The position numbers and the translations under genes were made by a program. Of a stretch of DNA of 44,742 nucleotides, positions 7,565-13,418 are shown in pieces. The stretch lies in contig PBKX01000016.1 of assembly GCA_002722215.1 (NCBI GenBank), positions 16,927-61,668 of the forward strand, written 5' to 3'. Source of the DNA: Flavobacteriales bacterium. GTDB lineage: Bacteria > Bacteroidota > Bacteroidia > Flavobacteriales > TMED113. Numbering within the stretch: the stretch's first letter is position 1; each line of letters begins with the position of its first letter. Below the pieces are notes generated by a model. The model was given only the letters and a program-made list of their open reading frames with translations, did no database searches and was not told where the DNA came from.

Positions 7565-8161
7565 TTAATTAACTTCGTAATCAATCACTACCTCTGTCGA
7601 TTCAGATGGATTATCTTGTATATAAAAACGATATGTAACTGAATATATACCGGGAACATCTGAAGTTAAATATCCTTTAAAATAATCATCTTCTTCAAAA
7701 GGCCCTAGATTTAGAGGGTTTGGAGATGTTATCGTTTCAGAGGTAAAACAAATACCATTGAAACAGAAATATGCAGATGCATTATTGTCATTAAAAATCT
7801 TTCGCACTACTAGATTGTTCATGTTCTCACAAGATGCATTTCTAACATGTATATGTGATACGAGCAAACTATCAACCTCTCCGACAACATATTCTTCAAC
7901 ATGTGTAATCTCTATCGGATTTGGTAGTGCATCCGCTTCATATAAACATGAACCATCATCACAGATAGATGAAGCATTATAATTACAAGCTAATACATCC
8001 ATGCATCCATCAGGTAAATTACAAGAGTCATCATCATCGGTTGCATTAGGGTTATAATTACATGCTAAAGAGTCTGTGCAACCAGAAATCATATCCGGGG
8101 GACAGCCAATAAATAATAACAAACCACTAAGCAGTGAAATTTTTAAATAAAGTGTTTTCAT
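7565..8161 (-). CDS. Cys-rich lipoprotein: two GCxD..ACNYN..DD.SC repeats plus a C-terminal beta-rich domain with CFNGIC
   Basis: Likely start is the ATG at 8161 (MKTLYLKISLLSGLLLFIG-C, lipobox). The ORF-track start at 8191 overlaps a TAnnTTTG promoter element. Confidence 0.8.
   Translation of the reverse strand: MKTLYLKISLLSGLLLFIGCPPDMISGCTDSLACNYNPNATDDDDSCNLPDGCMDVLACNYNASSICDDGSCLYEADALPNPIEITHVEEYVVGEVDSLLVSHIHVRNASCENMNNLVVRKIFNDNNASAYFCFNGICFTSETITSPNPLNLGPFEEDDYFKGYLTSDVPGIYSVTYRFYIQDNPSESTEVVIDYEVN
7946..8083 (-). repeat. Two tandem Cys/Asp-rich protein repeats (GCTDSLACNYNPNATDDDDSC / GCMDVLACNYNASSICDDGSC)
   Basis: Visible in the translation; the two repeats start 25 aa apart. 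Confidence 0.85.
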
Positions 8162-8188
8162 AAAAATCAAATTTAAATTGATCTTATA

Positions 8189-8196
8189 CAAATTTA
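8189..8196 (-). promoter_or_regulatory. Bacteroidota sigma-A -7 element TAAATTTG for the lipoprotein gene (possibly continuing into maeB-ruvA-sprA)
   Basis: Matches TAnnTTTG, 27 bp upstream of the ATG at 8161. Confidence 0.55.
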
Positions 8197-8294
8197 ATCA
8201 TAATTAGACCATTTAGTATTAAATTAACATAATATCTGTTATAATTTTATTATATTAGTAAACTGATTATTAACGTACTTTTAAACAAAAAATT

Positions 8295-10270: not shown

Positions 10271-11932
10271 ATGTGCAAAAAAATTAGTGTCATTATTTTA
10301 TTGCTTTCTTGCAATCTCTTGAGTCAAGATTATGGAAGCCACAATATAAGTGGTAATAGCCAGCTGAATTATCAAACATTTCAGGAAGACAATACCATTA
10401 ACGCTGACAAAAGAAAACCATACACATCAGGATATACTAATTTACTATACAATTACAACCAACTGAGTATCGGGACAAGATTAGAATTATATAATAACCC
10501 TATTCCCGGCCTTACAGAATACCAGGGATATGGAATAGCAAATAAGTTTATTCAATATAATAACCGAAATATTGATGTTACAATTGGAAATTTTTATGAA
10601 GAATTTGGAAGTGGGTTAATTCTTCGAAGCTACTTTGATCCTAATTTAGGTATAGACAACTCTATTAACGGATTCCGATTAAAGATTACATCTCCAAAAC
10701 ATGGAATATATTGCACCACATTAATTGGGCATCAAAAATCATACTGGGAATATAGCAAAAGTTTGATTCGAGCAATAAATTTAGACATAGGGTTAAATGA
10801 TTTTTTATTAAAGGATTGGGAATCTATAATTAATCTAGGGGGTAGTTTTGTAACAAAAAAAGAAGTTGATAATGACCCTATATATATATTGCCTGCAAAT
10901 ATTGGAGCGTTTAATGGGCGCATTAGCATAACTAAAAAAAACACTTCCGTAAATTTAGATTATGCATATAAAATTAATGACCCAAATGCTGAGAATAATT
11001 ATATCTATAAAAATGGGAATGCTGTGATTCTAACTACTAATTATTCTAAAAAAGGGCTTGGGGTTTCATTTGGCGCAAAGAGAATTCAAAATATGAGTTT
11101 TCGGAGTGAAAGAAATGCTATTTTACAAGATTTAAATATTAACTACATTACTCCATTTACTAAACAACAAGCCTATTCTTTAGCAACAATATACCCATAT
11201 TCTAGTCAGGCAAATGGAGAAATGGGTCTGCAATTTGATTTTTATTATACAGTTCCTAAAAAATCGAAAATTGGGGGGAAATACGGCACCCAAATTAATA
11301 TCAATTTTTCTAATATGTTTAGTATTAACAAAACCCTCGCTAGCGATGCTGAAGTACTAAATCAAAGTGGAACAGTTGGTTATGATTCTAATTTTTGGCA
11401 ATTAGGAGAAGATCAATTATTTCAAGAATTTAATATTGAAGTCAGTAAAAAAATTAATAGAAATCTAAAATTAATAGGAACATATATTGATCTAATCAAT
11501 AATGATAAAATTCTTAAATCCCAATCGATACCTGAAAACAAACAACACGAAATCATAAAGGCAAAAATTGTCATATTAGAGTCAATCATAAAGACAGGCT
11601 CTATAAAATTTCCATTATTCAACAAACCTGCTAGAACATCTATCAGAACTGAAATACAACACCTATATACTGAACAACATTTTGGAAATTGGGCAATGGG
11701 CCTAATAGAGTATAAAATTTCAAAATTATTTTTCTCTGTACAAGACTTATATAATTACGGCTATAGCGAAAAACCTCATTATTATTCTACATCCATTGGT
11801 TATAATCAGGGAGCACATAGAATAGCAATAACTTACGGAAAACAAAGACAAGGATTATTTTGTGTCGGGGGAGTGTGTAGAGAAGTGCCTGCATCAAATG
11901 GGTTTTTAATTAGTTTAACGAGTTCATTTTAA
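10271..11932 (+). CDS. DUF6029-like outer-membrane beta-barrel protein with C-terminal CVGGVC motif
   Basis: Signal peptide then Q; GNFYEEFGSGLILRS, DNSINGFR; C-terminal YGKQRQGLFCVGGVCREVPASNG..ISLTSSF with terminal Phe. Start is ATG 10271 or TTG 10259. Confidence 0.8.
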   Translation: MCKKISVIILLLSCNLLSQDYGSHNISGNSQLNYQTFQEDNTINADKRKPYTSGYTNLLYNYNQLSIGTRLELYNNPIPGLTEYQGYGIANKFIQYNNRNIDVTIGNFYEEFGSGLILRSYFDPNLGIDNSINGFRLKITSPKHGIYCTTLIGHQKSYWEYSKSLIRAINLDIGLNDFLLKDWESIINLGGSFVTKKEVDNDPIYILPANIGAFNGRISITKKNTSVNLDYAYKINDPNAENNYIYKNGNAVILTTNYSKKGLGVSFGAKRIQNMSFRSERNAILQDLNINYITPFTKQQAYSLATIYPYSSQANGEMGLQFDFYYTVPKKSKIGGKYGTQININFSNMFSINKTLASDAEVLNQSGTVGYDSNFWQLGEDQLFQEFNIEVSKKINRNLKLIGTYIDLINNDKILKSQSIPENKQHEIIKAKIVILESIIKTGSIKFPLFNKPARTSIRTEIQHLYTEQHFGNWAMGLIEYKISKLFFSVQDLYNYGYSEKPHYYSTSIGYNQGAHRIAITYGKQRQGLFCVGGVCREVPASNGFLISLTSSF

Positions 11933-11935
11933 ATT

Positions 11936-12811
11936 ATGAAAAAAAGAATACCTGCAATTTTGTTAATTATTTTATTATGCTGGATATCATGTGATAAAAT
12001 AGAGCCACCATATATAGAAGCCGGAAATCAGAGCGCGGAAAAAACTATATTAATTGAAAAGTTTACTGGGCATAAATGTAGTAATTGTCCAGAAGCAAGC
12101 AGAAAAGTAGATGAATTAAAGGATTTTTATAAAGACAATTTAATTTCTATTGCCATACATCCTGGGGCATTAACAGAATTCACTGGCATTGATGAAAATT
12201 ATCCGTATGATTTCACAACTAATGCTAGTGATTTAATTGCAACTGATATGGGAGCTAGTTTCCTCCCTCTTGGAACTGTAAATAGAGTGGCCGGTGGAAT
12301 TTCTAATAGATGTTTTACAAAAGATGAATGGGCACAAGAAATAGATAATTTATTATATGATGATGATGGGAACCCCTTGGAAAAAAACATCGATTTTAGC
12401 ATAAACACCTCATTAAATGAGTTAAATAAAGAACTTACTATTCAAACTAATATTATCCTACTAAACAATCTAGAAACTAATTATAATTTATGTCTTGTAA
12501 TAATAGAAGATGGAATTATTTCTCCACAAGATGATGGAAGTGAAACAATTCAAGATTATGAACATAATGATATTTATAGATCTGCTGTAAATGGGGCATA
12601 TGGAGAAAATATAACCAAATTTGCTTTTGTTAGCCTAGAAGGACAATCCGGATATCAAGCAACACACACCTTAATATTTAATGAAGATGCTAATGTTAAT
12701 TGGACAAATGATTGGAATAATATAAATAATTGTGCTGTATTAGCATATGTTTATAATACGGAGACCTTGGTTATTGAGCATGTTCAAAAACATCATATTA
12801 TTCATGAATAA
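11936..12811 (+). CDS. Omp28-family outer-membrane lipoprotein with CxxC
   Basis: Lipobox WIS-C; LIEKFTGHKCSNCP, IAIH, PLGTVNR, IIEDGIISPQ, YEHNDIYR..VNG..GE, VLAYVYN. Confidence 0.85.
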   Translation: MKKRIPAILLIILLCWISCDKIEPPYIEAGNQSAEKTILIEKFTGHKCSNCPEASRKVDELKDFYKDNLISIAIHPGALTEFTGIDENYPYDFTTNASDLIATDMGASFLPLGTVNRVAGGISNRCFTKDEWAQEIDNLLYDDDGNPLEKNIDFSINTSLNELNKELTIQTNIILLNNLETNYNLCLVIIEDGIISPQDDGSETIQDYEHNDIYRSAVNGAYGENITKFAFVSLEGQSGYQATHTLIFNEDANVNWTNDWNNINNCAVLAYVYNTETLVIEHVQKHHIIHE

Positions 12812-13418
12812 AATTGTTGTCTTTTTTTTTATTTTGGCATCAAATTTTTGCTATAGTCAAGACTTCAATGCAGGCACTATTATTGGGATAAACACCAGTC
12901 AAGTATCAGGTGATAATTTATCCGGATTCAATAAATTGGGGCTTAGAATCGGTGGATTTGTAAATCGGAAATTCCGACATTTTGATGGACAAATAGAATT
13001 ACAATACATAAACAAAGGTAGTCGAGAACTAATTGAACAAAACACATATAACGAAGGCTATAAGTTTCAAGTCAATTATATAGAAATACCTATTTCAATG
13101 AAAAAAAACATATATAAAAACAGTCATGTTGAATTAGGATTTTCCATAGGACATCTACTCAATTGGATTGAAGAATACGATGGAATTGATAATTATGGAA
13201 TTGATATAAAAAAAATTGAATATAGTTGTCATATAGGATTTCAATATAAAATTAATCCGAATCTATATTTTAACAGCAGACTCTCTAATTCCCTTTCCCC
13301 GATAAGACCACACTCTTTGAATCAACATAATTCAGATTCTAATGTATATCAATGGAATAGAGGACAGTATAATACATCTATATCTTTTGTAATAAAGTAT
13401 TATTTTCTTAAAAAATAG
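12804..13418 (+). CDS. Small outer-membrane beta-barrel (PorT-like / porin family)
   Basis: Start ATG 12804 overlaps the omp28 end; signal peptide ..[39 protein letters not shown]. Confidence 0.75.

Follow-up and report, generated by a model that had tools for sequence, protein, structure and literature searches.

Gene content of the locus

The DNA considered here is a 44,742-nucleotide stretch of a Flavobacteriales genome (GenBank assembly GCA_002722215.1, contig PBKX01000016.1; hereafter the window), in which positions 7565–13418 hold six genes for exported proteins, among them a β-barrel of the DUF6029 family that is encoded between a TlpA-type thiol oxidoreductase and an Omp28 lipoprotein. 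An original prediction, made from the sequence alone, had read all six as a thiol-disulfide relay whose members sit in different envelope layers, with electrons passing from TlpA to a cysteine pair of the barrel and on to Omp28 and a secreted thioredoxin. We listed the open reading frames (ORFs) of the window between 5500 and 16000, assigned families with Pfam and NCBIfam models, and judged signal peptides and lipoboxes by eye from the translations. The six ORFs were found as described, their family names stand, and the cysteine motifs lie exactly where they had been placed (CFNGIC 7748–7765, CGPC 8472–8483, CKPC 9946–9957, CVGGVC 11861–11878, CSNC 12077–12088); the distribution of the window proteins over different envelope layers is itself predicted.

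The DUF6029 gene (10259–11932, + strand) encodes 557 amino acids (aa) ending in phenylalanine and matches the family model PF19494 with 515 bits against a cut-off of 27, over residues 7–557 and profile positions 2–538 of 538. Upstream of it lies the gene for a TlpA/ResA-like oxidoreductase of 170 aa (9754–10266, +) with an AhpC-TSA match (E 2e-20) and a WCKPC motif whose cysteines are C65 and C68. Its NCBIfam scores all fall below the cut-offs (ResA 71 bits versus 170, TlpA 36.8 versus 230), and by sequence it is best described as a generic TlpA-like protein with no assigned orthologue, predicted to be periplasmic, with a signal peptide and without a conserved lipobox. The host genome contains one DsbD_TM gene. 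Downstream of DUF6029 follows the Omp28 lipoprotein (11936–12811, +; 291 aa), with a lipobox at Cys19 and a CSNC motif; it scores marginally above the cut-off of NF033782 (151.2 versus 150 bits) and reaches 74 bits versus 34.9 with PF11551. These genes are tightly spaced. The TlpA gene overlaps a TTG start of DUF6029 by 8 nucleotides (nt) or, if DUF6029 begins with the ATG at 10271, stops 4 nt ahead of it, the spacing between DUF6029 and Omp28 is 3 nt, and the Omp28 stop overlaps the likely ATG (12804) of a small outer-membrane β-barrel gene (12747–13418, +; 223 aa; OMP_b-brl_2, 38.3 bits, cut-off 27). As had been noted, the last four genes abut or overlap.

Conservation of the core module across Bacteroidota

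How widely is this arrangement inherited? In a phylum sample of 301 genomes from 144 genera, DUF6029 is present in 79 genomes (46 genera), and it was found in none of 14 control genomes; a whole-library search of public data returned 956 representatives at E ≤0.001. We examined 61 of the 78 loci other than the window's own (the 29 top-ranking loci, the 20 that follow them and 12 with weak matches), tallied by one script with profile hidden Markov models built from the first 30 loci. Left out were 16 loci of a clade that we call f29 and that of genome G208, in which an Omp28-like match lies directly downstream of the barrel.

The arrangement recurs in the 61 loci, which span more than 20 families of the sample. 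Every one of them has a CxxC thioredoxin-fold gene adjoining DUF6029 (61/61). A TlpA with a CxxC motif lies upstream on the same strand in 46 loci, many with a 4-nt overlap of start and stop, and is divergent in a further 6, which makes it adjacent in 52 of the 61 and not adjacent in 9. An Omp28-like CxxC protein is encoded directly downstream of the barrel in 35 loci and elsewhere in the locus in 9, and another CxxC redoxin takes the downstream place in 11, all of clade f29; a second thioredoxin-fold gene was not found in 6 of the 61 loci. An adjacent TlpA together with a second thioredoxin-fold gene occurs in 46/61.

Co-occurrence extends to whole genomes. By hand cross-tabulation over the same genome sample, Omp28-like genes (E ≤1e-5) are present in all 51 DUF6029-positive genomes outside clade f29 and in 4 of the 27 within it, compared with 9 of the 222 DUF6029-negative genomes, all nine at E 6.3e-11 or weaker. 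Where Omp28 is not adjacent to the barrel, as in G117, G167, G035 and G083, a strong Omp28 gene is found elsewhere in the genome. The linkage of TlpA, DUF6029 and Omp28, which the original prediction had noted for other Bacteroidota, is thus borne out by the survey. The relay of six genes is not conserved as a whole: the T9SS thioredoxin in its window form (T9SS, type IX secretion system), the small barrel and the cysteine-rich lipoprotein recur in only 4, 3 and 3 of the 61 loci, and the conserved core is smaller, comprising TlpA, DUF6029 and an Omp28-type protein.

Beyond this core, no neighbour family appears in more than 5 of 40 loci inspected over a wider range. In 19 distant loci, 90 neighbours searched with Pfam have unrelated functions, with one methionine sulfoxide reductase B (MsrB), one P-type ATPase and one FeoB each confined to a single locus. 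In locus L038, an MsrB gene (SelR; 5700–6239, −) directly follows DUF6029. This is seen in that locus only and, being non-recurrent, is a possible hint at client activity.

DUF6029 as a large barrel with a conserved cysteine pair

The strongest conservation in DUF6029 falls on two segments, one of which holds its cysteines. We aligned 129 sequences, consisting of the window protein and 128 of the best 150 matches (22 under 500 aa were dropped). Of the two cysteines of CVGGVC (11861–11878, +), C540 is invariant and C535 is conserved in at least 90%, within the motif YGRQRxGxxCVGGVCRxVPAxxGxxLSxxxxF. In the first 30 loci, C535 is kept in 29/30 and C540 in 30/30, and the pattern C-x-x-G-x-C is present in 59 of the 61 loci, the exceptions being one split ORF and one broken C-terminus. 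In L069 (G077:C49, about 6001–7720) the DUF6029 gene is split into two frames near residue 475, and in L084 (G285:C4, 3386–4963) the C-terminus mismatches the family; both could be assembly errors or pseudogenes.

An AlphaFold model of the protein is of high predicted quality (predicted local distance difference test (pLDDT) 94.2, predicted TM-score (pTM) 0.90). In its DSSP assignment, 24 transmembrane strands are joined by short turns at one end of the barrel and by long loops at the opposite end, a topology taken from the DSSP strings only. The best matches in the PDB are FimD (E 4.2e-9, query TM-score (TMq) 0.47), the FimD translocation domain 3ohn (target TM-score (TMt) 0.52) and PapC usher barrels; further matches are assorted large barrels, among them MtrB (6r2q_B, E 3.5e-6, rank 42), chitoporin, AlgE and OprD. 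The two most conserved segments are loop L3 (residues 113–135, mean 0.73) and the tip of the cysteine hairpin, followed by loop L7 (residues 278–320) and turn T7. L3, which may face inward or outward, and the hairpin tip both fall on what is predicted to be the outer or luminal side of the barrel.

In the model, C535 and C540 lie on strands 532–536 and 539–543, either side of G537-G538. They flank the Gly-Gly β-turn that tips the last β-hairpin (520–536, 539–556), a hairpin about 6 residues longer than its neighbours. As modelled, the pair would form a disulfide-capable staple across a two-residue turn. The termini and short turns of outer-membrane barrels usually face the periplasm, and because of this rule the hairpin tip is predicted to be extracellular or folded over the lumen. 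Measured against a DsbD-like transducer, whose redox-active pair lies in the membrane-embedded part and can be reached from both sides, the DUF6029 pair is conserved and is predicted, from DSSP and topology, to sit on a hairpin tip beyond the membrane span.

Omp28 as a thioredoxin-fold lipoprotein

Cysteine conservation extends to the partners, and the poor conservation that would have refuted the original prediction is not seen: C48 and C51 of Omp28 are kept in 28/28 and the CxxC of TlpA in 23/23 sequences from the first 30 loci. The lipobox Cys19 is invariant in all 24 aligned lipoprotein forms of Omp28, and the full set of invariant residues is C19, T44, C48, C51, P52, H75, P111, W132, Q198, R215 and G223. 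The Omp28 model (pLDDT 85.2, pTM 0.81) has a β-α-β-α-β N-terminal domain that carries the CxxC, followed by a β-sandwich. By sequence, the protein matches the solved Omp28 fragment 2r2c in the sandwich only. By structure, the top Foldseek match is HBP35 of Porphyromonas gingivalis (5y1a; E 1.7e-11, TMq 0.61, 15% identity), ahead of a DUF1223 thioredoxin-like protein and then 2r2c. On this model, Omp28 is a thioredoxin domain joined to a β-sandwich, of the HBP35 type. According to the available text of PMC2907840, HBP35 is a T9SS surface protein whose reduction of insulin is abolished by mutation of its CxxC, which complements an Escherichia coli dsbA mutant and which binds hemin.

Directly after the lipobox, the window Omp28 begins C-D-K-I-E-P-P-Y, an instance of the family motif C-D-x-[IV]-[DE]-x-P-Y. 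Most of the 24 lipoprotein forms in the alignment keep this motif, at residues 19–26 (11990–12013). As the tether of a lipoprotein normally varies in sequence, the motif may itself serve as a signal for sorting or docking.

We also followed a lead to selenocysteine. The window Omp28 reaches 39.9 bits with the model of an Omp28-related selenoprotein (NF045500, cut-off 200), and its CxxC is encoded by cysteine codons, not by a stop codon; none of 401 phylum genomes exceeded the cut-off, and the sole match (E 7.4e-24) has no internal stop. As no in-frame TGA was found, the lead comes down to the name of the model, and we rejected it.

Surface sorting of the partner proteins

Among our findings, the evidence on surface sorting shifted our judgement most. 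When 23 partner proteins were scanned, 17 had a Por_Secre_tail and no lipobox. The Omp28-like partners of distant lineages combine an ordinary signal peptide, a CxxC and an Omp28 domain with this tail, and a profile of the C-terminal sorting domain (CTD), built from tail-bearing partners, finds an Omp28-like CTD protein in 16/61 loci. Clade f29 presents another version, in which TlpA (CKPC) and the barrel (CTSGIC) are followed by two CPHC redoxins, the first a lipoprotein and the second T9SS-tailed; 9/11 loci have this tail. Altogether, a T9SS-tailed thioredoxin-fold protein is encoded beside the barrel in at least 29 of the 61 loci. A T9SS tail thus replaces the lipid anchor in many lineages, and there the partners are destined for the surface. 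Judging from these sequences, lipid anchor and T9SS tail appear to be interchangeable for the partner proteins; by this argument, the lipid-anchored forms would work at the outer face too. Partners destined for the surface are what a trans-envelope model requires. The cysteine pair of DUF6029 is not predicted in a membrane-embedded position like that of the DsbD cysteines, and it could be a structural staple. We consider a trans-envelope relay plausible.

Several loci have tandem pairs of Omp28-like CxxC genes (L067 7708–9525, L045 1927–3979, L054 8339–11294, L070 7671–10378). Such copies are sometimes one lipid-anchored and one T9SS-tailed, or are fused to Cleaved_Adhesin or fn3 domains, which suggests diversification of the surface partner.

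In the window itself, the T9SS cargo thioredoxin (8295–9716, +; 473 aa) consists of a signal peptide, a thioredoxin/AhpC-TSA domain with WCGPC (Thioredoxin 30 bits, cut-off 23.5), an unassigned middle and a type A CTD (PF18962 38.3 bits versus 27; TIGR04183 33.2 versus 23), and its PDB match is limited to the thioredoxin domain. We considered whether it might be an Omp28-type protein and rejected this, as profile comparison with Omp28 found likeness in the signal peptide and thioredoxin motif only (79 columns, probability 86%) and no evidence of the Omp28 β-sandwich. Window-type copies are found in L053, L059, L065 and L067.

The cysteine-rich lipoprotein (7565–8191, −; 208 aa, 11 Cys, lipobox FIGC), whose gene likely starts at the ATG at 8161, is probably an accessory of the module. 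It matches no Pfam or NCBIfam family, and its best protein-atlas scores (0.81–0.82) are below a meaningful level. Its lipobox is followed by two window-specific GC-x-D-x-LACNYN repeats in tandem and then by a domain of about 130 aa with an invariant F-C-x4-C pair, to which CFNGIC belongs. The repeats (G-C-x-D-x-L-A-C-N-Y-N ... D-D/G-S-C; residues 38–82, with 8060–8110 on the − strand) are absent from 3/3 aligned homologues. These homologues, in the f10 loci L059, L065 and L067, keep the cysteine pair, and all three carry a Por_Secre_tail CTD and not a lipid anchor. By hhalign, the cysteine-rich domain resembles a small CTD protein encoded upstream of TlpA in L038 (probability 97.2%, E 3.4e-11, partly through a shared tail), and such small T9SS proteins upstream of TlpA (f30, f39) keep a cysteine pair as well (CFGELC in L038, CFDFC in L040, CFALC in L041). 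The cysteine-rich lipoprotein and the T9SS thioredoxin are probably surface clients or accessory members of the module. A phmmer search with the window protein, which distant homologues could escape, placed the small barrel behind Omp28 in no loci but L059, L065 and L067, and this barrel is a lineage-specific accessory.

Transcription units and genomic surroundings

The six genes do not form one transcription unit, and the cysteine-rich lipoprotein gene is on the opposite strand. Judged by sequence, the operon likely runs from TlpA through DUF6029 and Omp28 to the small barrel as its last gene, and the divergent lipoprotein gene and the T9SS thioredoxin gene are probably transcribed on their own. 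Between the stop of the T9SS thioredoxin gene (9716) and the likely ATG of TlpA (9790) sits a terminator-like hairpin (9732–9768, +) with an A-run, a GCCAC stem and a T-run (15 pairs); terminator-like sites across the region number 3, with 2.4 expected. The listed GTG start of TlpA falls inside this hairpin, which makes the ATG at 9790 the more likely start. Directly after the hairpin follows TAACTTTG at 9767–9774. The Bacteroidota −7 promoter consensus is TAnnTTTG, and since this motif occurs in the window no more often than by chance (67 sites, 68.8 expected), a promoter reading at 9767 is weak and suggestive only; sigma-70-type promoter matches are likewise at chance level (46 found, 38.9 expected).

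Contigs from marine RNA libraries match parts of the cluster. They speak to presence in RNA libraries and not to transcription, and for the set P1 the RNA label is a guess. Contigs of P2 match 7801–7961 in the cysteine-rich lipoprotein gene as well as 8288–8731 and 9005–9164 in the T9SS thioredoxin gene with 0 differences, and those of P1 match 7716–8057 and 8266–9030 in the same two genes with 0–6 differences per contig. A P3 contig matches the T9SS thioredoxin gene only and comes from a divergent relative (63 differences). DUF6029 is matched at 10316–10465 by one sample. No contig among these matches bridges the hairpin, and the gap in coverage at 9525–13248 carries no weight.

Housekeeping genes flank the cluster, namely ruvA, a malic enzyme/PTA fusion, ruvB and cox1. 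At its 3′ end, the small-barrel gene (+) converges with ruvB (−) in an 11-nt overlap at 13408–13418, so that no terminator would fit behind the operon. Beyond ruvA and the malic-enzyme gene, some 3 kb away from the redox cluster, a 1558-aa open frame (3–4676, −; open at the window edge) encodes the N-terminal two thirds of SprA. The SprA_N match (E 3.8e-162) lies within a 2369-aa frame on the same contig and indicates a T9SS in this genome, whose assembly is small and incomplete (1.43 Mb, 39 contigs, 81% complete).

The f10 loci L059, L065 and L067 have the whole six-gene layout of the window, with a flanking ORF of 755–786 aa where the window has the malic-enzyme gene. Genomes sampled from the order to which the window is assigned (f2, f3) have Omp28 divergent from TlpA. 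By gene order, the window therefore groups with f10 and not with its assigned order.

A possible redox route to the cell surface

Co-inheritance of the module across Bacteroidota points to an undescribed thiol-redox route to the bacterial surface. We tentatively propose, holding it at somewhat less than even confidence, that the module is the outer-membrane arm of an envelope thiol-disulfide pathway in which redox equivalents are exchanged between TlpA and the surface. A secreted TlpA-type oxidoreductase, presumably fed by the DsbD of the genome, would act in the periplasm. The DUF6029 barrel of about 24 strands would dock a thioredoxin-fold protein at the surface, and redox equivalents could cross the outer membrane either through the barrel's own cysteine pair or by direct contact through its wide lumen. 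On the far side would be cysteine-pair proteins tethered to the outer face, always including a thioredoxin fold; here this would be the lipid-anchored Omp28, and in other lineages the surface partner would be this protein, or a redoxin, bearing a T9SS sorting tail. Docking, the membrane side of the window Omp28, and electron transfer with its direction are what we infer on top of the gene linkage, the conserved cysteines, the folds and the sorting signals that we observe. A bolder version, in which DUF6029 is the outer-membrane counterpart of DsbD, a TlpA-fed β-barrel transducer that keeps lipid- or T9SS-tethered surface proteins of the Omp28/HBP35 type redox-active, seems to us possible but somewhat unlikely.

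A number of observations weigh against such a route. Reduction of T9SS cargo might already take place in the periplasm, ahead of export and without any relay, and the Gly-Gly β-hairpin pair could be a purely structural staple. In the model, this pair is predicted to lie well beyond the membrane span, where TlpA would have access only through the lumen, and the long conserved loops L3 and L7 may fill that lumen. Support for docking is weak: in one complex prediction of barrel residues 24–557 with Omp28 residues 20–291, each with its alignment, the pair scored 0.59 and the highest of three controls 0.00. At least 88% of contacts are shared between runs, and the partner has a pLDDT of at least 82. 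Of 80 solved complexes, 58 attain this mark, as do 2 of 110 mismatched pairs; only 7 of the 80 solved complexes, along with both passing mismatches, attain it with a score of 0.60 or less. For the window Omp28, the canonical export signal is missing: in the available text of PMC5080379, lipoprotein export signals of Bacteroidota are C-X-K-(D/E)2-X, SDDDD and SDDFE, in which a polar or positive residue is followed by at least two acidic ones at about +3 to +5 from the lipid-modified Cys, and the acidic residues of the window protein are non-consecutive, so that its surface exposure is read only from the CTD-bearing homologues. The CxxC dipeptides of the partners vary (CSNC, CGNC, CGPC, CPPC and the DsbA-like CPHC), which implies no single direction of electron flow. 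Finally, the sampled genomes are related, and the counts overstate the number of independent events; and a search for fused DUF6029 forms of 976–2785 aa gave none at E ≤1e-10, which is weak evidence.

Could DUF6029 serve as a platform for display or biogenesis instead, anchoring the surface thioredoxin-fold protein with a structural cysteine staple, while TlpA acts in the periplasm only, where it would maintain the cysteines of cargo or barrel in their proper state ahead of export or assembly, and no redox equivalents cross? Cargo-specific barrels are known beside some T9SS cargo, SprF with SprB and PorQ with PorZ. Cysteines that flank a two-residue hairpin turn have a geometry common among structural staples, which suits this explanation, as do the weak docking support (0.59 versus 0.00), a partner that swaps between lipid anchor and T9SS CTD as a surface display unit might, and the chance that L3 and L7 together plug the lumen. 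General periplasmic redox would suffice for such a platform, however, and yet a dedicated TlpA adjoins the barrel in 52/61 loci, often translationally coupled; with only two conserved cysteines the barrel offers nothing to isomerise, and the CxxC of the partner is invariant, as expected of an active enzyme. We consider a pure platform unlikely. We rate as quite unlikely a substrate channel built on the logic of SusC/SusD, with the surface protein capturing or reducing a disulfide, metal or metalloid, DUF6029 as the channel and TlpA handling the substrate. An L3-type loop and conserved charged strand residues (E76, K160, R221, D234, K238, E321, E484) are in keeping with it, as are the invariant His75 alongside the CxxC of Omp28 and the presence of chitoporin, AlgE and OprD among the structural matches, but 24 strands far exceed known small-molecule channels, and no transporter, metal or sulfur-metabolism neighbour recurs in the 40 wide loci or among the 90 neighbours of the 19 distant loci. 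Hemin binding by the structural relative HBP35, as given in the available text of PMC2907840, would also fit a channel.

The exact wire of the original prediction, from TlpA through C535/C540 and the CxxC of Omp28 to the secreted WCGPC thioredoxin, with DUF6029 acting like DsbD, is a special case of the outer-membrane arm proposed above. It is favoured by the near-invariance of the DUF6029 pair, in one of the two most conserved segments, and by CTD-bearing thioredoxin-fold neighbours in at least 29/61 loci. The pair is, however, predicted to lie outside the membrane span, on a tight turn, the window-type T9SS thioredoxin is found in 4/61 loci only, and the terminator-like hairpin sets its gene apart, which leaves this precise path very unlikely in our view. 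Least credible, at the edge of what we would entertain, is a Wzi-like porin for polysaccharide export with the redox genes as incidental neighbours. Wzi has 18 strands where the DUF6029 model has about 24, and thioredoxin-fold genes flank DUF6029 in 61/61 loci. No polysaccharide-export family occurs among the 90 neighbours of the 19 distant loci, where glycosyltransferases are confined to two loci, and no outer-membrane polysaccharide export (OPX) or other polysaccharide-export neighbour recurs in the 40 wide loci. For this porin speak AlgE among the structural matches and, as far as the available text of PMC9603273 goes, Wzi-β-barrel-like matches near OPX genes that resemble DUF6029 by HHpred.

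Relation to known systems

A full-text literature search for DUF6029 returned one work only, on polysaccharide porins (PMC9603273, seen in part). In searches for Omp28 with thioredoxin, or for Omp28 with P. gingivalis and lipoprotein, no title or abstract dealt with linkage to DUF6029, supplementary files being outside their scope. The families are known. To the extent of these searches, there is no earlier description of how they are linked, of Omp28 as a thioredoxin-fold protein, of how large the barrel is or of partners sorted to the surface. DUF6029 is thereby placed in a definite setting, other than the polysaccharide porin suggested in the available text of PMC9603273. On the model and sorting signals described above, Omp28 would be redefined as a thioredoxin-fold protein, with lipid anchor and T9SS tail as exchangeable tethers of the same proteins.

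HBP35 is the studied case of a Bacteroidota surface thioredoxin-fold protein (PMC2907840, available text). The Omp28 model resembles it in having a CxxC thioredoxin domain followed by a β-sandwich, and many DUF6029-linked Omp28 homologues carry T9SS CTDs; unlike HBP35, the window Omp28 is lipid-anchored. No barrel or TlpA partner is described for HBP35 in the part of PMC2907840 available to us, and the searchable literature describes no electron source beyond the outer membrane for the surface thioredoxin-fold proteins of Bacteroidota. The module genetically ties such proteins to a periplasmic reductase and to a barrel big enough for a protein domain.

Two other systems share the architecture of the barrel in part. 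The usher barrels have 24 strands, and FimD and PapC are the top structural matches of DUF6029, which has the same number; it lacks the usher plug and the N- and C-terminal domains, the identity is about 10%, and no chaperone or pilin genes are nearby. In LptD/LptE, a barrel with functional disulfides works with a lipoprotein partner, and the disulfides of LptD link its N-terminal domain to the barrel. DUF6029 is likewise a large barrel with conserved cysteines near the seam of first and last strand and a lipoprotein partner in the same system, but its single pair staples one hairpin, and the window proteins have no LptD or LptE family match.

In its periplasmic half, the module follows the cascade logic of thiol exchange from DsbD/CcdA to TlpA, ResA and CcmG, with a secreted TlpA/ResA-like fold bearing C-x-P-C and a DsbD_TM gene in the genome. 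That pathway ends in the periplasm, whereas TlpA is here tied to an outer-membrane barrel and surface-sorted thioredoxin folds; and in contrast to the helical membrane domain of DsbD, DUF6029 is a β-barrel whose cysteine pair is not predicted in the membrane span. By analogy, the layout also resembles that of MtrCAB, in which a donor in the periplasm, a barrel of very large size and an acceptor tethered at the surface work together. The two systems are unrelated in sequence, the structural match to MtrB is generic to large barrels, and, unlike in the heme-based MtrCAB conduit, CxxCH is absent from the TlpA, Omp28 and T9SS thioredoxin sequences. If DUF6029 does prove to be a counterpart of DsbD, the module would be the first known route by which thiol exchange takes reducing or oxidising power through the outer membrane of a bacterium, making it a thiol counterpart of MtrCAB.

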